A DNA stretch of 64,000 bases. It comes from an uncultured Actinomycetes bacterium (GTDB taxonomy: Bacteria; Actinomycetota; UBA4738; HRBIN12). Shown one piece after another: positions 341 through 62,361 of the stretch (its first letter is position 1; the number at the start of each line of letters is the position of its first letter). Made by a program: the position numbers and the translations under genes. Location of the stretch: the NCBI GenBank assembly GCA_963704885.1, contig CAVPIB010000001.1, positions 922,262 through 986,261 of the forward strand, written 5' to 3'. The notes beneath the pieces were generated by a model. The model was not told the DNA's origin, did no database searches, and was given only the letters and a program-made list of their open reading frames with translations.

Positions 341-1528
341 ATGAGCGAGCTCCGCTCAGCGGTCGATTCGCTGCGCGTCGAGGTGCTTCCGGAACTGCCG
401 GATGCACGGATCGAGGAGGACTTCAGCGAGCTCCAGCGGGTCTCCGAGCTCCTTGAGATAGAACGGCTTCGGCGCCTGGCCGAGCTCGATCGGCGCCGCC
501 TCTACGAACGCGACGGCCATCTGTCTGCGGCCTCGTGGCTCGCCACTGCTCACAGGGTGTCCTGGGGTGCGGCGCGGGATCAGATACGGGTGGCTCGAGC
601 GTTGGACGAGATGCCGCAGACGCGCCGCGCGCTCGAGGCCGGCGACGTATCGATGTCGGTGGTGCGGTTGCTCGTCGACGCCAGTGACGCCGATCCCGAG
701 GCCTTCTCGCGGTCGGAAGCTCAACTGGTGGACGCCGCCAGGATCCACTCCGTGCATGACCTGCAGAAGGTGGCGGCGTACTGGCGCCAAGGCGTCGAGC
801 GCGAACGTGCCAAGGACGGTGAGGACACTCTGCGCGAGCGTCGGAGGCTCCACGCATCGGTCTCGTTCGCTGGCATGGTTCGCGTGGACGGTGACCTGGA
901 TCCCGAGACAGGCGAGACGCTCCTCACGGCGCTTTCCGCTGTGCTCGACTCCGAGTCCCGCTCCCGCACCGACGACGACGTCAGAACGCCCGCCCAACTG
1001 CGGGCAGACGCCCTTGGCGAGATCTGCCGGCAATGGCTCGACCGCAGTGACAGGCCGAGCGTCGCGGGCGAGCGTCCGCACGTAACCGTGACGGTGGGTG
1101 CCGAGGCGCTTCGAGGCGACCTGGGCATGAGTAACGAGCTCGATTACGTCGGCCCCGTTGATCCGGAGACTGCGCGGCGGCTCGCGTGTGACGCCTCGAT
1201 CATGCGAGTGGTGCTCTCAGGGCGTTCCGAACCCCTCGATGTCGGGCGTAGGACCTCGGTCATCCCTGCTGCCATGCGCAGGGCAGTGATCGTGCGTGAT
1301 CGTCACTGCCGGTTCCCTGGGTGCGACCGTCCTCATACATGGTGCGATGCCCACCACGTCGTGCACTGGGCCGACGGAGGACCCACGGCGGTTCCCAACC
1401 TGCTCTTGTTATGCCGACGCCATCATCGGTTGGTGCACCAGGGCCGGTTCGGACTGACGCTTGAGGACGGACGGCCGTTGTTCAGACGACCCGATGCATC
1501 GCCGCTGGAGGATCGAGCACCGCCGTAG
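341..1528 (+). CDS. HNH endonuclease, DUF222/13E12-repeat family
   Basis: 395-aa ORF. C-terminal HNH motif ...RHCRFPGCDRPHTWCDAHHVVHWADGGPTAVPNLLLLCRRHHRLVHQGRFG. N-terminal DUF222-like region typical of multicopy actinobacterial HNH proteins. Confidence 0.85.
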   Translation: MSELRSAVDSLRVEVLPELPDARIEEDFSELQRVSELLEIERLRRLAELDRRRLYERDGHLSAASWLATAHRVSWGAARDQIRVARALDEMPQTRRALEAGDVSMSVVRLLVDASDADPEAFSRSEAQLVDAARIHSVHDLQKVAAYWRQGVERERAKDGEDTLRERRRLHASVSFAGMVRVDGDLDPETGETLLTALSAVLDSESRSRTDDDVRTPAQLRADALGEICRQWLDRSDRPSVAGERPHVTVTVGAEALRGDLGMSNELDYVGPVDPETARRLACDASIMRVVLSGRSEPLDVGRRTSVIPAAMRRAVIVRDRHCRFPGCDRPHTWCDAHHVVHWADGGPTAVPNLLLLCRRHHRLVHQGRFGLTLEDGRPLFRRPDASPLEDRAPP

Positions 1529-1644: not shown

Positions 1645-4600
1645 TCACCTGCGGGCGGCTCGGCCACGACGATCTGCAGCGTGCCTCCGGAGGGGGCCTC
1701 TTGACCGGAGCCCGCCTCTTCGCCGTCGGCCGGAGGCGCAACAGGCGCCTCGCCACCTGGGCCGCCGTCGGGCAGGAAGACACGGAACGCCGATCCGCCG
1801 CCGTCGCGGCTCTCGATCCGGGTCCAGCCGCCCTTGCATCTCCACGAACCGTTCCACGACGGGACTGAGCGATCCGTCAGACGAGGGCTCGGGGTCTTCG
1901 ACCGAGATCAGAGCGCCTCCATCGAGGTGAGCCAGGCGAACGGTGATGCCCTTGCCCGGGGGCGTGCGGTCGCCGCTCGCCCGCAGCAGGCCCGCCAAGA
2001 CCTGCTCCGCGCGCAGCGCGTCCACGGCCACGATCAGCGACTCGCTATCGATACGGACGTCGTGGTCGGTGCCGACGCCGGACTCCTCCACGACACGCTT
2101 GACCAACGCCTCCAGGTCGGTGCGCTTGATCGTCAGATCGACGACGCCGTGCGCCAACGCGTCGGCGTCGGCCAGGTCGGCCACCGTATGGCCCAGTCGG
2201 CGTGCCGCAGCGGTCAGCTGCTTGATCAACTGTGCCTGCTCCTTGGAGTCCTTCTTGAACTTCATGATCTGCGTGAGGCCCAGGATGTGGGAGAGCGTCT
2301 TGTTCGCGTCGAGCGACAGCTCCTTGGTGAACGGTGAGGCAGCGCGGCGATCCTCGAGAGGCTCGCCGGCTTCGGCATCAGCTCCGGCAGCGGCCGCCGG
2401 TTCCGACGAGGTCTGCAGGTCGTGCAGCGCCTTCTCCATCTGGAGGTGTCGCAGCTCGGCCTCGACCTCTTCCAGTCGCACGATCGTCTCCGCGAACTGC
2501 CGCTCAGCGGAGTGCGCGCGCTCTTCGACCTCGATGAGCTTCTCGGTCTGGCTGGCCAGACGCTCCTGGCTCGCTCGCAGCACCTGCTCCGTGTCCGGGT
2601 CCGGCAGGGTCTGAGCGGCAGCGGCGGCCAGCTCGGCGGCGTGTCGGGCCTCCGACTCGGCCACCGTGCGGGACAACTCATCACGTTCGACGGTGATGCG
2701 CCCCAGGTCCCCGGTCGCTTGGGCGGCCTCCTCGCGCGCGGTTCGGAGTTCTTGCTCGACGCGGTCGGCCCGCTCGGTCAGCTCCACGCCGCGACCGAGC
2801 TCTGTTTGGATCTCCGCGTTGGCAGCAGCCAGCTCCAGGCGGATCTCCTCGCGTTCGCGTGCCGCGAGCTCCTGCTCGCGCTCCGCCTGTTCCCGCAGAC
2901 GGCTCGCGTCCGCCAGCTCTCGCTGGAGGGTTTCGATCTCGGTCCGCGAACGCATCAGCTCTTCGTTCGCCTTCGCGACCTGTTCGTTCCGCGACGAACC
3001 GTGTTGGGTGGCGGCTGCGATCTCGTCGCGCGAGGCCTGCAGGTCCGCGAGCGCCTTCTCGAGTTGCGATCGCGTCTCGCGCAGCTCGACGTTCGCGCTG
3101 TCGGAGGCCGCCGTCACCTCGGCGATCCGGCGAGTCAGCTCTTCATCGCGCTGGCTCAACCGCAGCTCGAGCGAGGATGCCTGTTGCGCCATCTCCTCCT
3201 GAAGCGTGGCCTCGCGCTCGGCCAGACGATGCTGGAGCTCGGCCTCGCGCTCGGCCGCCTCGGCCGTGAGCGTCGCTGCACTTTGTGCTGCCTCCGCCGT
3301 CAGCGCGGCTTCGCGATTCGCGGCTTCCTTGGCGAGCGCTTCTTCGCGCTCGGCCAGCTGGCGCTTCGCCTGCGTTTCCATCTCCACGATCTGCGTCTGG
3401 AACTCCTCGCGGGTCCGACGCACCTGTTCCTCTAGATCGGCCTCGCGCTCCACCAGGTCCGCGCGGTGCGACGCCTTCACGCTGTCGAGCTCCGCACGGG
3501 TCGCCCGGAGCTCCTCGCCCAAGACAGTCGCCTTCTGTTCCTCGGCGCGGAGCACGCGCATCTCGTTGCGCACGTCCTCCAGCTCGGTGTTGGCTCGTGC
3601 CAGCTCTGCCTGTGCCGATTCCAAGGACTCCCGCGTGTGCAGCGCTTCGACGTGAGCGGCGTCCAGATCCTCGTGCATCTCCTGCGCGCGCGCGGCCTGG
3701 GACTTGAGCGTGTCGAGCTCCCGGCGGGTCACGGAGAGCTCGGTGTGAGCCCCCTCGAGCTCGGCCCGCAGGCCGATCGCCTCTTGTTCGACCTGGCGGG
3801 CCCGGTGGTCGAGCGCCGGATCCGGCCTGTTCTTGGCCTGCTCGGCGATGTGGCGAGCGAGCTTGTCACGCTCGGTCCCCATGGCCTTCAGCTGGCCCTC
3901 CAGAAGCCGGACGTGACCTTCGGCCTTCAGGAGGCGTCCCTCCAGCTCGGGATCGAGCGCGCCGGGCTGCGGCCGCTCGTGCACCGACTTCTGCGTGACA
4001 TGCAACTGCTCCAGGGTCTTGCGGTACTGCTCCTGGATCACGGAAAGGCGTTGCTCGGCCGTCTCGGCCCGTTCCTCCGCCTTGCGTCGCGCGTCGCCCT
4101 CTTCGCGCAGGCCGGGGGACGGCAGCTCGATCGGACGCTGCACCGGAGGCATGGCCGCAGCCGCCGCGGCGGCTCGGGCGCTCGAGGGGACGAAGTTGGC
4201 CATAGCCACCGCCGAGGCGGAGAGGCGCATCACCTTGTACAGGAAGACGAACGCGACGACGGCACTGATAGCCATGAAGATGGCGGCGAACTGCCAGGGC
4301 CGGCCGGCCGCGGCGATGGGGCCGTCGGGTCGCGCGAGTTGGACGGCGGCCGCGATGGGCGCGTCCGACCGAAGATGCAGTGGCACGAGCACGGAGAAGG
4401 AGCCGTCGCGCTGGTCCCAGGACACGGTGCCGCGCGTTGTGGCGTCGGTGACGGCACTTCGAGCTTCATCTGGCCGTTGTCCGATGAGTGCCCGGTCCGT
4501 GGCGTAGACGATGGTGCCGTCCGTCGACCAGATGGCGACATCGTCGTAGGGCGTGGGGTCCAACACGACCGGCGTGATCTTGACCGTGATCTGGTCGGCC

Positions 4601-4818
4601 TCCGTGGAGCTCGCCGTGGAGTTCACGTCGGACGGCGACAGTACGAGTGGCAGGGAGTTCTCGACGATGGAGCGCGCCTGGTCAACCGCGTTCGTCTTCG
4701 CCTGGTTGATGGCATTAACGCTCAGCAGGATCGAGGCGATCGCGCCCACGGCTAGGAGCGCTGCCAATACAAGCAGCATCGTCCGAGCGATGCGATAAAC
4801 GCTCCTCGTGCCGGCCAT
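1645..4818 (-). CDS. Membrane-anchored coiled-coil protein with degenerate histidine-kinase-like C-terminal module
   Basis: 1057-aa ORF. N-terminal TM helix (MLLVLAALLAVGAIASILL), a roughly 150-aa extracytoplasmic segment, then a second TM (FAAIFMAISAVVAFVFLY). This is followed by about 650 aa of E/R/A/L/Q-rich heptad-like coiled coil. Next comes a DHp-like segment (ELSLDANKTLSHILGLTQIM) with Leu where the phospho-acceptor His is expected. An HATPase-like N-box (VLAGLLRAS) has both conserved Asn replaced and no G2 box. The Arg-rich last roughly 60 aa may be GC-driven read-through. Confidence 0.6.
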   Translation of the reverse strand: MAGTRSVYRIARTMLLVLAALLAVGAIASILLSVNAINQAKTNAVDQARSIVENSLPLVLSPSDVNSTASSTEADQITVKITPVVLDPTPYDDVAIWSTDGTIVYATDRALIGQRPDEARSAVTDATTRGTVSWDQRDGSFSVLVPLHLRSDAPIAAAVQLARPDGPIAAAGRPWQFAAIFMAISAVVAFVFLYKVMRLSASAVAMANFVPSSARAAAAAAAMPPVQRPIELPSPGLREEGDARRKAEERAETAEQRLSVIQEQYRKTLEQLHVTQKSVHERPQPGALDPELEGRLLKAEGHVRLLEGQLKAMGTERDKLARHIAEQAKNRPDPALDHRARQVEQEAIGLRAELEGAHTELSVTRRELDTLKSQAARAQEMHEDLDAAHVEALHTRESLESAQAELARANTELEDVRNEMRVLRAEEQKATVLGEELRATRAELDSVKASHRADLVEREADLEEQVRRTREEFQTQIVEMETQAKRQLAEREEALAKEAANREAALTAEAAQSAATLTAEAAEREAELQHRLAEREATLQEEMAQQASSLELRLSQRDEELTRRIAEVTAASDSANVELRETRSQLEKALADLQASRDEIAAATQHGSSRNEQVAKANEELMRSRTEIETLQRELADASRLREQAEREQELAAREREEIRLELAAANAEIQTELGRGVELTERADRVEQELRTAREEAAQATGDLGRITVERDELSRTVAESEARHAAELAAAAAQTLPDPDTEQVLRASQERLASQTEKLIEVEERAHSAERQFAETIVRLEEVEAELRHLQMEKALHDLQTSSEPAAAAGADAEAGEPLEDRRAASPFTKELSLDANKTLSHILGLTQIMKFKKDSKEQAQLIKQLTAAARRLGHTVADLADADALAHGVVDLTIKRTDLEALVKRVVEESGVGTDHDVRIDSESLIVAVDALRAEQVLAGLLRASGDRTPPGKGITVRLAHLDGGALISVEDPEPSSDGSLSPVVERFVEMQGRLDPDREPRRRRIGVPCLPARRRPRWRGACCASGRRRRGGLRSRGPLRRHAADRRGRAARR

Positions 4819-4985: not shown

Positions 4986-7523
4986 CTACGCCGCCGGGCC
5001 GGCTCCCGAGCGGACGATCGTGTCGCCGGTGACCTCGTGCTTGTCCAAGACGATCAGGTCTTCGATCGCCTCGCGCATCTCCGCCACGTGACTCACCAGC
5101 ACGACCAAGCGCCGATCGTCGGCGGAGACCAGGCGGCCGATGCCCTCCATGGCGCGGTCCAGATGATCGGGATCGAGGCTGCCGAACCCCTCATCCAGGA
5201 AGAAGGAATCTAGGCGTCCGCCGCCGCGCGCGACCATCTCCGCCAGCGCGAGCGCGAGTGCGAGGGAGGCCAGGAATGTCTCGCCACCCGAAAGGCTGTC
5301 GGCCTTCCGCTTGGTGCCGGCGGCGTTCAGGTCCAAGATCTCGAACCGGTCGTCGTCGGTGAACCTGTATGCGCTGTCGGTCAGCTGCTCGAAGTGTTCG
5401 CTTCCCAGCTCCGCCAGCTCCGAGCGCTCCTCCTCTAAGAGGAATCCCAGGAAGCGGGAGGGCTGCAGGTCGTCGGCCAGGCGCTTCGCGACCCCTCTGC
5501 GCGACTCGGTCTCCAAGACCCTTCGCTCCAGGTCGCTCGCCGCCGCGATCCGCTCTTCCAGCTCGGTCACCAGCGCAGCCGCCGTGCCGTGCGCCACCCC
5601 CGCGTCGGCCAGCGCCCGTCGGAAGTCGTCTGTGGGAGCCAGGCCGAGCGACTCGAGCAGCGCGCCGCGGGCCGCGATGCCCTCCTGCACCCGGACCGCG
5701 GCTTCGTCCCGCTCCTCTGACGATCGCTCGTGCCGGGCGACGATCGCCTCACGCACGTCGGCGAACGCGGTCTCGATCGTGGCCGGCTCGGCAGGTACGT
5801 CGCGATCCTCGTCGAGCCGGCCCCAGATGCCGGACAGTCGGTTCGCGAGCTTGGCGATCATCGCGCCGGCATCCTCGGCCCGCCGAACCGACTCCTCGTG
5901 GGCCGAACGCGCGCGCTCGACCGCGGTCCGCGCCTGGTCCACCGCGAGCTCCGCGGCGGCGAGCTCCGCCTGCCGGGCTTCGAAGAGCGAGCGGACGTCT
6001 CCCTCCTCGCCCAGCCACTCGACCAGCTGGCTCTTGGTGGCGTCGAGCGCGGAGTCGGCCGCCGTCGTGGCCGCGGTGGCGCGCTCGAGGACGGCCTCCG
6101 CCCTGGCGATGCCGGTGCTCGCCTCGCCGACGGCTGTTCGCGCCGACGCGTCGTCGGCTGCGCACCGCTCCTTCTCGATTCGCGCGCGCGCCTCGTCCCG
6201 CTCGGCCTTGGCCAGGGCCTTCTCGGCGGCCGCGACCTTCGGGGCGGCCCCGGCCTTTGGGATCGTGTGCACGTCCTGTCTGCAGACGGGACAGGGCTCA
6301 CCGGCCTCGAGCGTCCCGCGGAGTTCGTGGGCCATCTCGGCATGCTTCGCGTCCATGAGGGAAACGCGCGCGGTCTCGACGACCTGGAGCACGGCGGTAA
6401 GCGCGCGATCGGCGGCGGCGAGAGCGTCGGTCGCCTCCACCGCAGAGGTCTCTCGCTCCTCGGCCAGGGACCGCTGGGTCGCGAGCTCCACGTCGGCGCG
6501 ATCGGCCTCGGCGCGCGCGGAACGCAGTTCGTCGATCTGGCGTTCGTGCGCTTGCACCAGGTGTTCGAACGAGCGGAACTGCTCGCGGTCTCCATGCCGA
6601 GAGGCCACGTCCGCCAGCTCGGCCTCCCGTTCCTTGCGGAGCTGCTCGACCTGTTCACGCGCGGCCTTCGCGTCCGCGACGCGCGCTTCAGCGTCACGCG
6701 CGGCAGCGATCGCGATCTCCACGTCGGGTGCGGAGGGCAGTGCCGCCACGATCTCCTCAAGAGCAGCGATCCGCGCTGTCGCGGCCTCGGCGTCGCCCGC
6801 CGCCGCGTCCCGCTCCTTCTCCAGGCGCTCGATCTCGGGTCCGGCCTTGTCCAGGGCCGCCAACCGAGCCTGCGAGGCCCCGGCTGTCGCCCTCGCCTGA
6901 TCCAGCCTGCCCCGGGCCTCGGAGACACGCTCGCGTTCCTTCTCGAAAGAGGCCAGCTCCATCTCCACGCGGTCCAGCCGGGACTTCGCCACGCGCAGGG
7001 CGTCGTCGAGCCGTTCGAACCCGAACACGCCCTTCAGAACAGCGTCGCGCTGGGCGGGCGTCGCCTTCAGGAACTCCGCGAAGCGATTCTGCGCCAACAG
7101 CACCGAACGGCAGAACGTCTTGAAGTCCATCCCCAGGAGCTGCTCGATACGCGCGTTCATATCGCGTTCGAGGGTCACGGTCTCCACGATGTCCGCGTCC
7201 GGCTCGTCGGCGGCCAGCAGCTCGAGCTGGTGACCCGACGCACCCTTTCGGCGGAGCGAGCGGACCGCTCGCCACACCTGTCCGTTCACCTGGAACCGCA
7301 GCTCCACGTGCGACTGGTCCGCGAGCTGGTGGATCAGCGTCTTGGTGGCGCCCTCCACCTGTGGCGTCTTGCCGTACAGCGCGAACGAGATCGCGTCGAG
7401 GATCGAGGACTTGCCCGAGCCGATCGGGCCGACGATCCCCACCAGTCGCCGATCGCGCCAGTCGAACGTGGCACGGCCGCGGTAGGAACGGAAGCCCTCA
7501 ACGGTCAGCTCAAGCGGTCGCAT
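4986..7523 (-). CDS. sbcC: SbcC/Rad50-family double-strand-break repair ATPase
   Basis: 845 aa. N-terminal Walker A (GPIGSGKSSILDAISFALYG), a long central coiled coil with a CxxC zinc hook (GEPCPVCRQDV), and a C-terminal signature plus Walker B (SLSGGETFLASLALALALAE...FFLDEGFGSLD). It overlaps the sbcD stop by 14 nt, consistent with an operon. Confidence 0.85.
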   Translation of the reverse strand: MRPLELTVEGFRSYRGRATFDWRDRRLVGIVGPIGSGKSSILDAISFALYGKTPQVEGATKTLIHQLADQSHVELRFQVNGQVWRAVRSLRRKGASGHQLELLAADEPDADIVETVTLERDMNARIEQLLGMDFKTFCRSVLLAQNRFAEFLKATPAQRDAVLKGVFGFERLDDALRVAKSRLDRVEMELASFEKERERVSEARGRLDQARATAGASQARLAALDKAGPEIERLEKERDAAAGDAEAATARIAALEEIVAALPSAPDVEIAIAAARDAEARVADAKAAREQVEQLRKEREAELADVASRHGDREQFRSFEHLVQAHERQIDELRSARAEADRADVELATQRSLAEERETSAVEATDALAAADRALTAVLQVVETARVSLMDAKHAEMAHELRGTLEAGEPCPVCRQDVHTIPKAGAAPKVAAAEKALAKAERDEARARIEKERCAADDASARTAVGEASTGIARAEAVLERATAATTAADSALDATKSQLVEWLGEEGDVRSLFEARQAELAAAELAVDQARTAVERARSAHEESVRRAEDAGAMIAKLANRLSGIWGRLDEDRDVPAEPATIETAFADVREAIVARHERSSEERDEAAVRVQEGIAARGALLESLGLAPTDDFRRALADAGVAHGTAAALVTELEERIAAASDLERRVLETESRRGVAKRLADDLQPSRFLGFLLEEERSELAELGSEHFEQLTDSAYRFTDDDRFEILDLNAAGTKRKADSLSGGETFLASLALALALAEMVARGGGRLDSFFLDEGFGSLDPDHLDRAMEGIGRLVSADDRRLVVLVSHVAEMREAIEDLIVLDKHEVTGDTIVRSGAGPAA

Positions 7524-8676
7524 CGGCCTCCTCCAGCACGTCGCGAAAGAGTGCGAGCAGTTCGTCCGGCGCTTCTTCTTCGTGCTCGCGACGGAAGTAC
7601 TCGGCGTAGAGGTCCTCCCACGAGCGGTGGCCCTTCGCCAGCCGAGCGCGCTGGGCGCCGGCGGGACGCTGGGCCCTCACGTTCACCAGGAACCCGAACG
7701 CCTGGTGAGCGCGCTCGGAGAGCGACACGTCGGTGCCGCTGGCCTTCACGGTCAGATCCAGGAACGCGTCGGCCAGCTCCTCGGCCCGCGCCTCGATCGC
7801 GTCCCACGTGTCGGTCACGCGGACGAGACGCCGGCCGCCGGTGATCGGAACCGTCTCGGCCACGGCCAGCCGGCCGGGCTCGGCATCTACGATCACGACC
7901 CGCTTGTGCTCGCCCGCCTCGCCGAAGTCGAGTGCCAGCAGCGAGCCGGCGTACTCGGCCGGGACGGGCGTGCCGGGGACCGTCTGCGGCGCGTGGATAT
8001 GGCCCATCGCCACGTACTGCGGGCCGGGCGGTATCGCCTGCGCCGTGGCGGCGTAGGCATCGCCCATGTGGAGTTCCCGCTCGCCGCGCGCACCGTCGCG
8101 CCCCACGCGCACACCGTTAACCAGGAAGTGGGCCACCAGGATCGGGACCAGGTCGGCGCCGGCGAGTTCCACGAGCGCCTGGTTGTAACGGCCGGTGATC
8201 GCCGCCACCCGGTCCGCGTAGCCGCGGTACCACTCGCCGGCGTCCTTCATGAAGTCCACGACCTTCCCCTCCCGCAGGAACGGGAAACAGGCCACTACCG
8301 CGGGTAGGCCGCCGAGCTGGTCCGGGCCGATCACCCCCCCCTGATCCGGGCGCTTGATGCCGCCCACCAGGTGGACGCCCTGAGGACCGAGCAGCGGCGC
8401 GAGCGCCTCGAAGAGATCGGGGGAGTCGTGGTTGCCGGCCACCGCGATCACCGGTCGGCGCTCGGCGAGGCGCCGGAGCGTCTGCAGGCCGAGAGCAAGC
8501 GCGTCCATCTGCGGGATCGGCCGGTCCCAGACGTCGCCCGAGACGATCACGAGGTCGACGGCGCGTTCGTCGGCGATCCGTTCGACCTCCGCCAGGACGT
8601 CGCGGAACTCGTCCATGCGGTCGTGGCGGCCGAGCCGTTTGCCGATGTGCCAGTCCGATGTATGGAGGATCCGCAT
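7510..8676 (-). CDS. sbcD: SbcD/Mre11-family nuclease
   Basis: 388 aa. N-terminal calcineurin-like phosphoesterase motifs (MRILHTSDWHIGK ... VIVSGDVWDR ... AVAGNHD ... GHIHAPQ) typical of SbcD. Confidence 0.9.
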   Translation of the reverse strand: MRILHTSDWHIGKRLGRHDRMDEFRDVLAEVERIADERAVDLVIVSGDVWDRPIPQMDALALGLQTLRRLAERRPVIAVAGNHDSPDLFEALAPLLGPQGVHLVGGIKRPDQGGVIGPDQLGGLPAVVACFPFLREGKVVDFMKDAGEWYRGYADRVAAITGRYNQALVELAGADLVPILVAHFLVNGVRVGRDGARGERELHMGDAYAATAQAIPPGPQYVAMGHIHAPQTVPGTPVPAEYAGSLLALDFGEAGEHKRVVIVDAEPGRLAVAETVPITGGRRLVRVTDTWDAIEARAEELADAFLDLTVKASGTDVSLSERAHQAFGFLVNVRAQRPAGAQRARLAKGHRSWEDLYAEYFRREHEEEAPDELLALFRDVLEEADATA

Positions 8677-8699
8677 GTTCCGGGAGGAGGCGTGCCGGG

Positions 8700-10436
8700 C
8701 TAGAGGCCCGCGAACGGGTCGCCGTCGGCGTCGGTCGCCACTTCCTCCTTCCTTGTGGCCCAGGGCGGGAAGGGGAACGTCACGACGAGCGGCACCGGGA
8801 TGGCCGGCTGCGACACGACCATGGTGCCGGGCTTGAGCAGGCGCGCCCTCGCGCGTGTAGACGGCAGCATCCAGCCGTATTCAGCGCGCTCGGCCTCGGC
8901 GGCGTCCAGGCGTCCGCTCACGCGGATCGCGGCATTCTCCAGGACCTCTTGCGCGACCCGCGAGGCCGTCTGCTGCGCGCCGACGAGCAGCACGCCCAGC
9001 GACCGTCCGCGTTGCGCGATGTCGACGAGCATGTCCTTCAAGGGCCCGGTGCCTTCGCGGGGCGCGTACTTGTTGAGCTCATCGAGCACGAGCACCGAAA
9101 GGGGCAGCCGCTGTCCCGACTCCTCCTTCTCGCGGAACGTCTCGTTCAGGAGCGCGCCGACCACGAACCGCTGCGCCTGGTCGTGCAGCGACTGGATCGC
9201 CACGACCGTGACGCTCGCCTTCGAACGATCGATGCGGCGGCTCTCCCCGGCCTTCACCAGCTGGCCCATGCGCGCGGCGCCGGCGTGGAGTCGCCGCATG
9301 AACGCCGAGACGGTTCCGCCCATCACCCGGCCGCTCCATGCCCAGTCCGGCTCGGAGCCGTCAAGCGGCTCCAGGAACTCGCCGAGCGCGTCGACCAGCG
9401 AGGGGATGTCCGTCACCGTTCGCTCACCAGGTTGCGCCTTGACCTGCTGGCCGCGCCAGTTGCCGTCAGGCGCGTCGCGCGGATCGCGGAGCACGACCGC
9501 GCCCGGCATCCCTGCCACATCGACCGCGAAGCGTTTCAGCTGGGCCTGCACGCGTTCGCGGATGAACGGGATCTGGTTGCGCTGGTCGTTCGCATCGGTC
9601 AGTAGGAACTGCAGCAGCTCCTCGTCCACGAACTCGCGCGGCGTCCAGCTGAAGACGTCCACGCCCTCTTGGCGACCGCCCGTGTCGGGGACCACGACGT
9701 CGCCCGAGCGCGGGCGGGGCGGCGCCCAGAACCTGACCGAGGGGAACGGCCCGGGCTCCACGCCGAGCTTGGCCCAGCCGGCCGCGGCGTCCTCGTCGAA
9801 GAACCGGTTCGGCTTGTCCATCCAAAGGAGGTCTTCGCCCTTCACGTTGAAGACGAGCACGCGCAGGTTCGCGGCGCCCTCGCCCAGCAAGGCCGGGTTC
9901 CCGGTGAGCATCCTCAGGAAGAACAACGCGAACGACGTCTTGGTCGCCACGCCGCTGATCCCGCTGATCGACATGTGCCCGCCCTTACGCCCATCGAAGA
10001 AGTCCAGGTCCACGCTCACCGGCTCGCCGTCACGCCCGATGCCGATCGGCAGCGGCCGGCCCATCTCGTCCAGGTAGAGCGCCTTCGCGCGCTCGTCGCC
10101 GGTCGCGCGCTGCACGACCTCGCCTGGATCGGGCGAGACCCACACCTCCGGGTCCACACGTGTGACTGCGACGCGCGCGGAGCGGACCTTGGCCGCCGGC
10201 ATGATCCCGAGCTCGGCGACGCGGTGGGTGTCGGACTCGTACGAGGCTCCTTCGTAGACCGCCTCGGCCTCGGTGACCACGCCGTAGGTCCGGATCTCGC
10301 CCGCCTTGGGCACCTGCGTTCGGACGACCACCAGATCGTCCAGCTGGAGGAAGTCGTCGTCGTCCAGGACCACGCGGAACTCGGCCGTGGAGGCGTGCTC
10401 GGAGCCCAGGACGCGGCCGACGCCGTCGCCGGTCAC
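8700..10436 (-). CDS. herA: HerA-like (DUF87/COG0433) ATPase
   Basis: 578 aa. The N-terminal roughly 110 aa resemble a HerA HAS-barrel. The central P-loop-like region is GISGVATKTSFALFF, a non-canonical Walker A. Walker B is VLVLDELNKYAP, followed by an arginine-finger-like QRGRSLGVLLVGAQQ. The stop is 24 nt upstream of the sbcD start. Confidence 0.7.
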   Translation of the reverse strand: MTGDGVGRVLGSEHASTAEFRVVLDDDDFLQLDDLVVVRTQVPKAGEIRTYGVVTEAEAVYEGASYESDTHRVAELGIMPAAKVRSARVAVTRVDPEVWVSPDPGEVVQRATGDERAKALYLDEMGRPLPIGIGRDGEPVSVDLDFFDGRKGGHMSISGISGVATKTSFALFFLRMLTGNPALLGEGAANLRVLVFNVKGEDLLWMDKPNRFFDEDAAAGWAKLGVEPGPFPSVRFWAPPRPRSGDVVVPDTGGRQEGVDVFSWTPREFVDEELLQFLLTDANDQRNQIPFIRERVQAQLKRFAVDVAGMPGAVVLRDPRDAPDGNWRGQQVKAQPGERTVTDIPSLVDALGEFLEPLDGSEPDWAWSGRVMGGTVSAFMRRLHAGAARMGQLVKAGESRRIDRSKASVTVVAIQSLHDQAQRFVVGALLNETFREKEESGQRLPLSVLVLDELNKYAPREGTGPLKDMLVDIAQRGRSLGVLLVGAQQTASRVAQEVLENAAIRVSGRLDAAEAERAEYGWMLPSTRARARLLKPGTMVVSQPAIPVPLVVTFPFPPWATRKEEVATDADGDPFAGL

Positions 10437-10658
10437 GAGGTCTCTGCGGCCGACGCTGTCATGACGCGTATCGTAGCCGCGCCTTCCGATGGCGGGGGAG
10501 TTTCGAGCCGGCGGGAGCTTGGTCGCCTCAGCCGCCGAGGCTCGCGCATCTTCGCTCGTCAGACAACCATGGGTCGGATGGCCCCACTTGATAGGGCCGG
10601 CGAACCCTCACGGACGCCTTCGGGTATCCCTACGTTGGGTTCCGGGAGGTGTCTAGAG

Positions 10659-10862
10659 ATGAAAGCAAGCGTTGGAGATCGGATAGTCGTTCGCGGGCAC
10701 CACGTTGGCGAATCCGAGCGGGACGGCGAGATCCTGGAGGTGCGCGGCCCTGATGGCGGCCCTCCCTACCTCGTCAAGTGGTCGGCGGACGGACATGTCG
10801 GGTTCGTGTTCCCAGGTCCAGACGTGACGATCGAGCACTTCGAGAGCCACCTGTCCCGGTGA
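10659..10862 (+). CDS. DUF1918 domain small protein
   Basis: 67 aa (MKASVGDRIVVRGHHVGESERDGEILEVRGPDGGPPYLVKWSADGHVGFVFPGPDV...). An RBS (gggaggtg) lies 8 nt upstream of the ATG. The sequence matches the conserved actinobacterial DUF1918 pattern. Confidence 0.7.
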   Translation: MKASVGDRIVVRGHHVGESERDGEILEVRGPDGGPPYLVKWSADGHVGFVFPGPDVTIEHFESHLSR

Positions 10863-10879
10863 TCGCGGTTACGCCGTGG

Positions 10880-11809
10880 CTATGAGGCTTCCGGCTGGCT
10901 GACGGCTTGCCGCAGGGCCCGGTAGACGAGGCCGGGGTCGCCCATGCGATGTCGGAGTTGGCGTTCGAGTGCACCGATGGGCACCAGGTTCTGCGGCGCG
11001 CGGGGATCCATGTGGGCCTCCGAGGCGACGACGGGCAGCACCGCGGCCGTCCGGTCGGCGATCACGCGCACCTCCTCCTTGGGGAGCTGGCCCGACGCCT
11101 CGCAGCGGACGATGCCGGTCCATGAATGGCCGCCTTGGAGCATGGCCAGACGCACGTACCAGGAGTAGCGCCGGTATCCCGCGATCGTGAACAGCGGCGT
11201 GCGCTGCCCGGGAGCGAGTTCGGCGATCACGGCGTTCTGCTCGGGTGGCAGGTAGGTGACGCGATGGCTCTTGATGTAGCCGACGACCGGCTTGGCCTCC
11301 AGCTCGTTCAGCGGCCCGTCGGCGATCACGAACGCATCGGCCGCGAGCACTGAGGCCGCCTCGCCTTCGGCCCGCCTCATCCGGGTGTGGAGCTCCTTCA
11401 CCAGGTGGCCGGGGTCATCCGATGCCGTCGTGGTCGTCAGGTAAGGCGGCTCTAGGTCGACCACAGGCAGCTGCTCGGGTCGACCGCCCGCCAGAACGGC
11501 CCACCGCTCGACACGAACGTTCACGACTTCGGACCAGCGCTCCTCGCGGTCCCAGAGCGCCGCGCCCACGGCGAACGTTCCGCAGATCCCCGGGATCGGG
11601 CCGGCGATCGGATCGTCCAGGAGCAGGCGCGCATCGACGCGCCTCACACCATCAACGAACGCGATCCGGTTCGTGCCGTCGTCGGCGCCCTCGAGCGGCT
11701 CCCAATCCGTTACCTCGACCGTCGCGTCGATCGTCCCCTCGGCCGGGGCGAGCTGCTCGTCGAGCTCGAGGGGCGCGCCGTACTCGGGAGCCCATCCCTC
11801 GACGAACAT
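10880..11809 (-). CDS. Hypothetical protein, candidate NurA-like nuclease
   Basis: 309 aa with no recognizable signal peptide. It has an RIAFVDGV motif near residue 50 that resembles NurA motif I ([IV]DGS). It sits just upstream, on the same strand, of herA-sbcD-sbcC. The assignment rests on context and is weak. Confidence 0.35.
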   Translation of the reverse strand: MFVEGWAPEYGAPLELDEQLAPAEGTIDATVEVTDWEPLEGADDGTNRIAFVDGVRRVDARLLLDDPIAGPIPGICGTFAVGAALWDREERWSEVVNVRVERWAVLAGGRPEQLPVVDLEPPYLTTTTASDDPGHLVKELHTRMRRAEGEAASVLAADAFVIADGPLNELEAKPVVGYIKSHRVTYLPPEQNAVIAELAPGQRTPLFTIAGYRRYSWYVRLAMLQGGHSWTGIVRCEASGQLPKEEVRVIADRTAAVLPVVASEAHMDPRAPQNLVPIGALERQLRHRMGDPGLVYRALRQAVSQPEAS

Positions 11810-11816
11810 CCGCGCC

Positions 11817-12410
11817 TCACCAGCCGAGGACGTCTTCGTCTCCCTCGAGCTGCACGCCTAGACCGTCGGCGAGTCGGTTCACGTAGGCGAAGTAGCAGGT
11901 GATCATGTTCGCATCCAGGATCTCGCGGTCCGTCAGACCCGCCCCTCGCATCGGAGCCAGGTCGGACTCGACCATGTTCCACGGCTCACGCGTGAGCTTG
12001 TCCGCGTAGTCGCAGATCGCCCGCTCGCGCGGTGTCAGCGGTGCCGTCCGATGATCTGCCTCGAGCGCCGCCGCGAATCCCGGCCGGCGCCGATCCGTCA
12101 TGCGGGCCAGACCGGCCGCGTGATGGCGTAGTCAGTAGTGGCACGCGTTCACCGCAGAGACGACGACGCCGATCATCTCCCGTTCGGGCCGGCTGAGATC
12201 GCCCTTGCCGTGCATCAGCGTCCGATAGAGGCGGGAGTGATCGCGCATCGTCTCCGGATGGAGACTGTGGATGGCCAGGATGTGATCCACGGTGCCGGTC
12301 TTGGCCGTTCGCATCTCGTCGTACAGCTCGGCGAGCTCCCCTTCGGCTTCCGCCTCGGGGATCACTTCGATCCAGGCCGGCCGATGCTCGGGCGAGGGGT
12401 CCTCGTTCAT
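11817..12410 (-). CDS. AhpD-like / carboxymuconolactone-decarboxylase-family peroxidase-related protein with in-frame TGA (candidate selenocysteine, CxxU)
   Basis: Track ORFs 12132..12527 (ending ...AVNACHY*) and 11817..12101 (MTDRRRPGF...) are in the same frame. They are separated only by a TGA and 10 sense codons (LRHHAAGLAR). The TGA sits where the second Cys of the AhpD CxxCxxxH motif is expected, giving CHY-U-LRHH. The likely real start is the ATG at about 12410 (MNEDPSPEHRPAWIEV...), which gives about 197 aa, the size of TIGR01926-type proteins. Confidence 0.6.
12094..12131 (-). promoter_or_regulatory. SECIS-like stem-loop downstream of the in-frame UGA
   Basis: The mRNA reads UGA-CUACGCCAUCAC-GCGGCC-GGUCU-GGCC(C)GC-AUGACGG. 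A 6-bp stem with a one-nucleotide bulge starts 12 nt after the UGA. The apical loop is GGUCU, as in the E. coli fdhF SECIS loop. An imperfect lower stem extends the structure (CAUCAC/AUGACGG). Confidence 0.5.
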
Positions 12411-12554
12411 CGGGCGCCATCCTCGCACACCCTTCTTCAGACGGGCTCTTCGATCGACGAGACCACCTTCCAACCCGACGACCCTTCGAAGACGAGGACT
12501 GAGATCCTGGTTGCGCTCGGACAGCAATGGGCATCCCCTTCCGCGAATACGGCT

Positions 12555-61400: not shown

Positions 61401-62135
61401 GTGGTGGCCAGGGCGCTCGACGTGGTCTTCCCGCCTCGATGCGCCGGCTGCGCGCGGGGCGCCTGGCCGTTCTGTCGACCCTGCAACTCCGCGCTCGTGC
61501 CGCTGTTGCCGCCGTGGTGTGGGCGATGCGGCCGTCCGCGTCCGGATGAAGTGGAGAGCTGTCGCGAGTGCCCACCCTCGCCTCTGGCGGGGGCCCGTGC
61601 CCCGTTCCTGTACGCCGGTCCCGCTCGCGCGGCGATCATCCGCCTGAAGTTCTCCGGATGGCGGAGCGTGGCAGCTGCGCTGGCCGACGCGATGGTCGCC
61701 GTCGGGCCGCCACCGGCCGACGCCGTCACCTGGGTTCCGCTCGCGCGTCGGCGACTGGCCGAACGCGGGTACGACCAGGCTCGAGCCCTCGCAGTGGCGG
61801 TTGGCGCGCGACTCCACCTGCCGGTCGTTCGCCTCGCGCGCCGAGTGCTTGCCACAGACCCGCAGGCCATGCGCACCGGAGGGCAACGACGGGTTGCCAT
61901 GAAGGGGGCCTTCCGACCCACGCGCCTCCCGGCGCCCGAGACGGTGCTCCTGATCGACGACGTGCTCACCACCGGCGCCACCGCTGCCGCTTGCGCTGAA
62001 GCCATGGTCGGAGCGGGTGCGCGCCGGGTGACGTTGCTTACCGCGGCGCGCGCGTTCGCCCGTCCCGAGGGGTCTGGCTATACTCGGCTGGGCTCTCAAC
62101 CGGGTCTGTGGTTGCCCGGGGATCTTCCCCGGTAG
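61401..62135 (+). CDS. comF: ComF-family protein (phosphoribosyltransferase domain)
   Basis: 244 aa. N-terminal Cys-rich zinc-finger-like segment (PPRCAGC...CGRCGRP...CREC) and a C-terminal PRTase motif (VLLIDDVLTTGAT). Confidence 0.8.
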   Translation: MVARALDVVFPPRCAGCARGAWPFCRPCNSALVPLLPPWCGRCGRPRPDEVESCRECPPSPLAGARAPFLYAGPARAAIIRLKFSGWRSVAAALADAMVAVGPPPADAVTWVPLARRRLAERGYDQARALAVAVGARLHLPVVRLARRVLATDPQAMRTGGQRRVAMKGAFRPTRLPAPETVLLIDDVLTTGATAAACAEAMVGAGARRVTLLTAARAFARPEGSGYTRLGSQPGLWLPGDLPR

Positions 62136-62361
62136 TCGACGCCAGCCGCGGGCGAAACGACCCACGTAAGGCGACCATTGGTCGGCCGAGCATGGCGCGG
62201 TTTAGATGTAAGTCCTGCCTCGGGCCGGGTGACCGGACCGGGAGAAGGTGCTAAGCCGTTCCTTCGGGGGCGGCGACCCCCTCCGCAGGCGGGTGTGGGG
62301 GCAAAGACCAGGTCAGCCGGGAGGGAGCCCACCCGGAGCGAAAGGGGGCGAAGCTACAGGG

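Follow-up and report, generated by a model that had tools for sequence, protein, structure and literature searches.

To our knowledge, the biochemistry of bacterial HerA-NurA has been worked out only for Deinococcus radiodurans, in which sbcCD is unlinked from these genes. D. radiodurans HerA consists of an N-terminal HAS-barrel, a RecA-like ATPase domain, and a helix-bundle domain, and its essential residues are Walker A K175/T176, Walker B D487/E488, catalytic D220, and translocation residues R495/R552 (PMC9960219). In archaea, herA, mre11, rad50, and nurA are co-transcribed as a four-gene cluster, and Mre11 interacts with HerA (PMC2288612). NurA-HerA homologues are acknowledged in Actinobacteria and other phyla (review PMC8708640), and a bacterial nurA-herA-sbcD-sbcC layout is already known from Oceanithermus profundus (PMC5448004). 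No account of the breadth of the bacterial four-gene cluster was found in the literature searched, which was covered in part. Here, such a cluster is described at positions 4986–11809 of a 64,000-nucleotide (nt) stretch of contig CAVPIB010000001.1 from an uncultured Actinomycetes bacterium, referred to below as the window. It is a real, conserved cluster for processing the ends of DNA double-strand breaks and an ordinary member of a layout that is widespread in Actinomycetota, Chloroflexota, and other bacteria.

Proteins and layout of the cluster

The four functions, nurA, herA, sbcD, and sbcC, are clustered on the minus strand. All genes named in a preliminary description of the window lie where it placed them, including a divergent DUF1918 gene between those for the 309- and 578-amino-acid (aa) proteins, NurA and HerA. 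Packing is tight, as had been noted, with 23 nt from the herA stop codon to the sbcD ATG in place of the 24 nt first given. The stop end of sbcD overlaps the start of sbcC by 14 nt, and GGAGGAGG precedes the sbcC ATG. The whole window is rich in guanine plus cytosine (GC, 0.64–0.71). The cluster has a GC content of 0.69–0.71 and its four open reading frames have a third-position GC content (GC3) of 0.86–0.92; both measures match the rest of the window.

herA (8700–10436, minus strand) has a GTG start and encodes a 578-aa protein. Residues 3–567 align with residues 12–602 of D. radiodurans HerA (PDB 7F6D chain B) with an expectation value (E) of 1.4e-118 and an identity of about 44%. A profile of 16 members of this HerA clade matches the same chain at 5.9e-232. 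The remaining PDB matches are weak, fall in the ATPase core, and are to defence-type HerAs (8xau and others) and EssC/FtsK-like proteins. The window protein carries counterparts of the residues that are essential in D. radiodurans: K166/T167 in Walker A GVATKTS (K175/T176), catalytic acidic D202 (D220), Walker B D452/E453 (D487/E488), and DNA-contact R460 and R517 (R495 and R552). All of these are invariant among relatives with identities as low as 43%, except R517, whose conservation is 90% or more. These matches identify the protein, first proposed to be HerA-like, as a bacterial-clade HerA, of the D. radiodurans HerA clade within the FtsK-HerA superfamily. A hexameric ring and DNA-dependent ATPase/translocase activity are predicted by analogy. 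A TraD/VirB4-type identity, of the conjugative DUF87 kind, is ruled out by the full-length match to D. radiodurans HerA.

The Pfam search suggested in the preliminary description gave a false negative. No Pfam or NCBIfam model, HAS-barrel, DUF87, and HerA_C included, matches the 578-aa protein at any threshold, and the HAS-barrel/DUF87 models match one or two of the 16 clade members at E ~0.05. The N-terminus does align with the HAS-barrel of crystallised D. radiodurans HerA, so the domain is not missing and its non-detection reflects a gap in model coverage. Lack of a model match was rejected as evidence against HerA in view of the PDB comparison. An exact-sequence look-up with the window protein was without result; the closest protein cluster is 92% identical. 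No archaeal HerA structures were recovered with the window sequence or the clade profile.

nurA (10880–11809, minus strand) encodes the 309-aa protein, which matches D. radiodurans NurA (7F6D chain H) over nearly its full length at E 2.8e-23 and Thermotoga TM1739 (1ZUP) at E 6.7e-10. A profile of 14 NurA sequences raises these matches to 5.4e-60 and 4.2e-22, respectively. The Pfam NurA model (PF09376), also suggested for checking, scores below its cut-off on the window protein (15 versus 21 bits, E 0.018, C-terminal half only) and matches 12 of 14 relatives at E ≤ 0.1, with a best value of 5.4e-07. An AlphaFold model built with database homologues has a predicted local distance difference test (pLDDT) score of 78 and a predicted template-modelling score (pTM) of 0.77. 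It matches 7F6D chain G with template-modelling (TM) scores of 0.73/0.68 and E 3e-19, and 1ZUP, described as a "ribonuclease H-like motif fold," with TM scores of 0.67/0.70. The ribonuclease H-like fold expected of NurA is thus present in the model. The FVDGV motif (aa 51–55, codons at 11645–11659, minus strand) had been read as NurA motif I-like, and its D53 is indeed invariant, as are E148 and D164 (DGP), in 14 sequences down to 38% identity. From the family, the three residues are putative metal ligands. A C-terminal RAPQNL motif (aa 270–275) is invariant over the same range of identity. Matches and model together identify the protein as a NurA-family, ribonuclease H-like nuclease. No archaeal NurA structures were recovered by the window sequence or the profile.

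sbcD (7510–8676, minus strand) encodes a 388-aa Mre11-type phosphoesterase. This calcineurin-like enzyme matches Metallophos (E 1.2e-14), exceeds the cut-off of the SbcD subfamily model TIGR00619 (139.4 bits, cut-off 77.65), and carries HTSDWH, GDVWD, and GNHD motifs. Its best PDB match is E. coli SbcD (E 1.2e-24). sbcC (4986–7523, minus strand) encodes an 845-aa Rad50-type ABC/SMC ATPase with Pfam AAA_23, SMC_N, and SbcC_Walker_B domains, all above cut-offs, and E. coli SbcC as best PDB match (E 1.1e-27). The split ABC head consists of Walker A GPIGSGKS from aa 32, signature LSGGE at aa 744, and Walker B FFLDEGF at aa 774. The CPVC zinc hook reported earlier is present at aa 411–414 (codons at 6282–6293, minus strand), at the apex in the middle of the coiled coil. 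SbcC scores below the NCBIfam SbcC equivalog and subfamily cut-offs (TIGR00618, 210 versus 478.5 bits). For both proteins, E. coli ranks first among PDB matches and Thermotoga Mre11/Rad50 next. Archaeal proteins are clearly weaker, with best scores of ~1e-10 for Mre11 and 5e-19 for Rad50. By these rankings, the window SbcCD is of bacterial type.

Conservation in relatives and the DUF1918 insertion

A HerA-motif scan of a genome collection found a relative in at least 564 species-level genomes. The best 80 of these were taken, with HerA identities from 91% (locus L001) down to 46%, and three metagenome contigs were added to give 83 loci. The loci span Actinomycetota (Acidimicrobiia, Thermoleophilia, and Actinomycetes such as Actinomadura and Micromonospora), Chloroflexota, Gemmatimonadota, and Acidobacteriota. 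Complete chromosomes of metagenome-assembled genomes were among the finds, for example OY970200.1, OZ243930.1, OZ242304.1, and OY969782.1. Within this HerA clade, of 76 testable loci, 71 have sbcD starting <300 nt beyond herA, three have it displaced, and two lack it. sbcC follows sbcD in 67 of 68 loci. nurA lies directly upstream of herA in 66 loci (gap <150 nt, frequently a 4-nt overlap) and after sbcC, in the archaeal order herA-sbcD-sbcC-nurA, in eight. Start/stop codon overlaps are frequent within the clusters. The gene order is therefore kept in relatives, and linkage of herA, sbcD, and sbcC is far beyond chance.

The order herA-sbcD-sbcC-nurA is also found on the linear plasmid NZ_CP134205.1 of Streptomyces sp. 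BB1-1-1 (L085, 1–4382). RefSeq names its proteins "ATP-binding protein," "exonuclease SbcCD subunit D," "SMC family ATPase," and "hypothetical protein"; the last is NurA (E 4e-46). The plasmid cluster adjoins TIGR02680, TIGR02678, and DUF2397 genes and an ImmA/IrrE peptidase, and is possibly defence-island-like, unlike the chromosomal loci. The HerA family is nearly absent from plasmids (six records) and phages (two records).

Such names are common in databases. At least 7995 HerA-clade and at least 5296 NurA-clade clusters were found in a protein collection. None of the 240 clusters listed (P0001–P0240) carries a precomputed Pfam domain, and the names given to them are "ATP-binding protein," "DNA helicase HerA-like ATPase," or "hypothetical protein." The labels "ATP-binding protein" and "hypothetical protein" arise because Pfam and NCBIfam models miss the HerA clade and NurA-clade proteins score under the Pfam cut-off. 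At least ~70 species-level genomes in four or more phyla pack this HerA clade with sbcD-sbcC and nurA, which supports a functional link between HerA-NurA and SbcCD in bacteria. The useful outcome is this breadth of conservation and the annotation gap, not the single instance; the window locus is itself unexceptional within this widespread cluster. Carriers available in culture, such as Actinomadura darangshiensis, Micromonospora solifontis, and the plasmid-bearing Streptomyces sp. BB1-1-1, make the four-protein question left open by the Deinococcus literature approachable.

In the window, nurA and herA are separated by a plus-strand DUF1918 gene (10662–10862, 66 aa, Pfam DUF1918 E 1.3e-27) and by a 225-base-pair (bp) spacer between the divergent herA and DUF1918 genes (10437–10661). 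The preliminary description called nurA displaced. The separation holds for the window and reflects a lineage-specific insertion. DUF1918 occurs between the two genes only in the closest relatives, L001, L081, L082, and L084, and is absent from L083 and ~66 other loci. Insertions are confined to the window's nearest relatives and their content varies. It is DUF1918 alone in the window and L001, DUF1918 with other small genes in L081 (7238–7751), and an HNH/DUF222 gene in L054. L083 has nothing inserted, and its HerA is identical to that of L081 and L082. Because the insertions are so confined and variable, contiguous nurA-herA is the ancestral state and the insertion in the window is recent and local. 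DUF1918 is not part of the ancestral cluster. In L084 (10999–14152) and partly in L082 (6721–7894), DUF1918 is joined by an RtcB ligase, a C-terminal fragment of a ribosome-hibernation factor, and an archease. An RtcB-archease end-healing and ligation pair within a DNA-end-processing cluster is noteworthy and may be coincidence.

The 225-bp spacer between herA and DUF1918 would have to contain the promoter of herA-sbcD-sbcC. Seven nt separate the nurA start from the stop codon of an AhpD-like gene upstream, and nurA is probably transcribed together with that gene or directly behind it.

Proposed function and alternative readings

The preferred reading, to which a probability of about 0.75 is given, is a chromosomal, vertically conserved bacterial cluster for double-strand-break end processing, ancestrally nurA-herA-sbcD-sbcC, with a mechanism resembling that of its characterised homologues. 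DNA-end processing is the most likely function because the proteins are homologous to those of D. radiodurans (PMC9960219) and of the archaeal system (PMC3326311, PMC2288612). SbcCD would bind DNA ends through zinc-hook-linked coiled coils and an ATP-driven head, and would clip blocked or hairpin ends. The HerA hexamer would use ATP to thread duplex DNA through its ring and deliver it to a NurA dimer held at the HAS-barrel face. There, NurA would unwind the duplex and degrade its 5′ strand, so that RecA receives a 3′ tail. That the four proteins cooperate physically, that resection has this polarity, and that the cluster serves homologous recombination are proposed by analogy with these systems. 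The tight, phylum-spanning linkage supports cooperation of HerA-NurA with SbcCD, a question left open for D. radiodurans (PMC4663267). The HerA/NurA end-resection machine coupled to SbcCD that was suggested at the outset gains support from the protein identities and the conserved linkage, with cooperation as its conjectural part.

Several points weigh against this reading. In D. radiodurans, nurA/herA mutants indicate little contribution to damage resistance (PMC4663267). According to a title cited in PMC8708640, inactivation of nurA/herA in Thermus raises ultraviolet resistance. Because mutant phenotypes are mild or paradoxical, the in vivo role of bacterial HerA-NurA is not settled. For this lineage, the proposed function follows from homology. 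The opposite-strand DUF1918 gene between nurA and herA makes co-transcription of nurA with herA implausible in the window. A promoter and terminator scan of the cluster found no sigma-70-like site and terminators no more often than by chance, and no LexA box was detected nearby. The linkage frequency is valid for this HerA clade and not for all bacterial HerA, since the 80 genome loci were the ones closest to the query.

It is unlikely that the cluster is instead a degradative machine acting on linear or foreign DNA, in defence or DNA clearance as in the destructive mode of RecBCD, with no part in recombination-initiating resection. Defence systems do contain HerA-like/NurA-like pairs, and the NurA model has a weak fold match to chain G of TdpAB (TM 0.44). 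Besides its weak PDB matches to defence HerAs, the window HerA matches PADLOC mad8 (33 bits) and HerA (26 bits), and SbcC has weak PADLOC matches to mad3 (96 bits) and LmuB (82 bits). A protective role has been speculated for archaeal HerA-NurA (PMC3326311), and the Streptomyces plasmid copy stands beside TIGR02678, TIGR02680, and DUF2397 genes. However, the PADLOC matches of the cluster are partial and reflect generic ATPase-head similarity, and NurA has none. The cluster is syntenic in chromosomes across phyla and lies beside housekeeping genes, and the rarity of the HerA family on plasmids and phages speaks against an origin in mobile elements or defence. The cluster itself includes no methyltransferase, sensor, or toxin partner, and no Sir2, DUF4297, or methyltransferase gene neighbours it. 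By PADLOC models and neighbour genes, the cluster does not belong to Sir2-HerA, DUF4297-HerA, MADS, TdpAB, or Lamassu.

The genes could also be neighbours by descent whose products work separately, with SbcCD acting alone on hairpins or protein-blocked ends and HerA-NurA acting with others such as RecJ. nurA-herA is kept without linked sbcCD in D. radiodurans and Thermus (PMC8708640, PMC5448004), D. radiodurans HerA interacts with RecJ (PMC4663267), and nurA in the window is probably split transcriptionally from herA-sbcDC, without apparent gene loss. Against this, the herA-sbcD linkage persists in the surveyed loci down to 46% HerA identity and through two gene orders. The overlapping stop and start codons suggest translational coupling, a pattern typical of products that interact functionally, and archaeal Mre11 binds HerA directly (PMC2288612). 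Separate work by the four proteins is thus considered quite improbable.

Recent horizontal acquisition of an archaeal herA-mre11-rad50-nurA operon would fit the shared gene content, the archaeal order in eight related loci and the Streptomyces plasmid, and the description of Thermus HerA as archaeal in origin (PMC5448004), but is very improbable because the proteins are bacterial-type, with SbcD and SbcC scoring best against E. coli and Thermotoga and HerA lacking any match to archaeal HerA structures even by profile, because GC and GC3 are native to the window, and because the cluster is common to several bacterial phyla. The term "archaeal-style" in the preliminary description therefore suits the layout and not the type or origin of the proteins: SbcCD is nearest to E. 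coli, and HerA and NurA belong to a Deinococcus/Thermotoga clade.

Beyond the preferred reading of a conserved bacterial end-processing cluster, a wider proposal is possible and is held tentatively, as rather doubtful when taken whole. All of the bacterial HerA-NurA clade may descend from a four-gene cluster of this kind, with linkage lost in Deinococcus/Thermus. The products may form a physically integrated machine of four proteins in which HerA touches SbcD directly, as in Sulfolobus, and this may be the principal resection pathway of large, mostly uncultured Actinomycetota and Chloroflexota lineages, replacing or standing beside RecBCD, AddAB, and AdnAB.

Neighbouring genes and comparison with described systems

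Genes around the cluster are housekeeping genes, including aconitase and thioesterase. Upstream of nurA lies a gene for an AhpD/CMD-like "peroxidase-related enzyme" (11817–12527, minus strand), both halves of which match TIGR01926. It has a single in-frame TGA (12132–12134) at the expected second Cys of a CxxC motif (VNACHY*LRHH). In L084, the AhpD-like gene has a TGA at the same codon (VNACNY*LRHH) and the frame beyond it is conserved. Directly behind the TGA, 26 nt able to form a hairpin (~12098–12123) are identical in the window and L084, and flanking codons vary. From these sequence features, the gene looks like that of a CxxU selenoprotein with a candidate selenocysteine insertion sequence (SECIS) element and not a pseudogene. 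No tRNA-Sec or sel genes were found in the window, and Rfam gave no SECIS family match at the AhpD-like gene.

A gene for a 1057-aa protein (1645–4818, minus strand) lies 168 nt downstream of sbcC. The protein has two predicted transmembrane helices, a ~600-residue coiled coil with weak SMC and LmuB similarity, and a C-terminal region similar to a histidine-kinase dimerisation/ATPase module (…KTLSHILGLTQ…). No Pfam model matches the protein. The gene is syntenic after sbcC only in the closest clade (L001–L011, L014, L040, L054, and L081–L083). Alignment with relatives stops at residue 996, and the ~60 Arg-rich residues at the C-terminal end appear to be read in the wrong frame.

The window contains a single perfect SOS box, an actinobacterial LexA box, TCGAACATATGTTCGA, at 316–331. 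It sits 10 nt upstream of a gene for a 395-aa DUF222/HNH-endonuclease-like protein (341–1528, plus strand), the gene type that separates nurA from herA in L054. A raiA RNA motif at 62095–62325 (plus strand) is the sole Rfam match in the window (RF03072, 141.9 bits, gathering threshold 101.3).

Among described systems, the E. coli sbcDC operon shares the sbcD-sbcC order and overlapping genes with the window and provides the closest structural-sequence matches. It differs in the length of SbcC, which is 845 aa in the window versus 1048 aa and so has a shorter coiled coil, and the window operon has herA ahead of it and ancestrally also nurA.

The archaeal herA-mre11-rad50-nurA operon of Sulfolobus and Pyrococcus (PMC2288612, PMC3326311) has the same four functions on one strand, and eight bacterial loci share its order. 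However, bacterial loci mostly have the order nurA-herA-sbcD-sbcC, and the window SbcCD is bacterial-type. Neither the Pfam HerA, DUF87, and HAS-barrel models nor sequence comparison with archaeal HerA structures reaches the divergent HerA clade of the window. A single transcript of all four genes is implausible in the window in view of the opposite-strand gene.

D. radiodurans NurA-HerA (7F6D, 7WRW, 7WRX; PMC9960219) is like the window pair in the unusual HerA Walker A GISGVATKTS, Walker B DELNKYAPREG, catalytic Asp, and DNA-contact arginines. The NurA proteins are homologous in sequence and fold (TM 0.73), with 349–369 aa in D. radiodurans versus 309 aa in the window. In D. radiodurans, nurA-herA is a two-gene operon unlinked to sbcCD (PMC8708640, PMC4663267), whereas herA in the window is followed directly by sbcD-sbcC. 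In Oceanithermus profundus (Ocepr_1235 region), a NurA homologue is followed by HerA (hepA), with SbcD and SbcC downstream, according to PMC5448004. That organism belongs to the phylum Deinococcota, and the DUF1918 gene between nurA and herA is a feature of the window.

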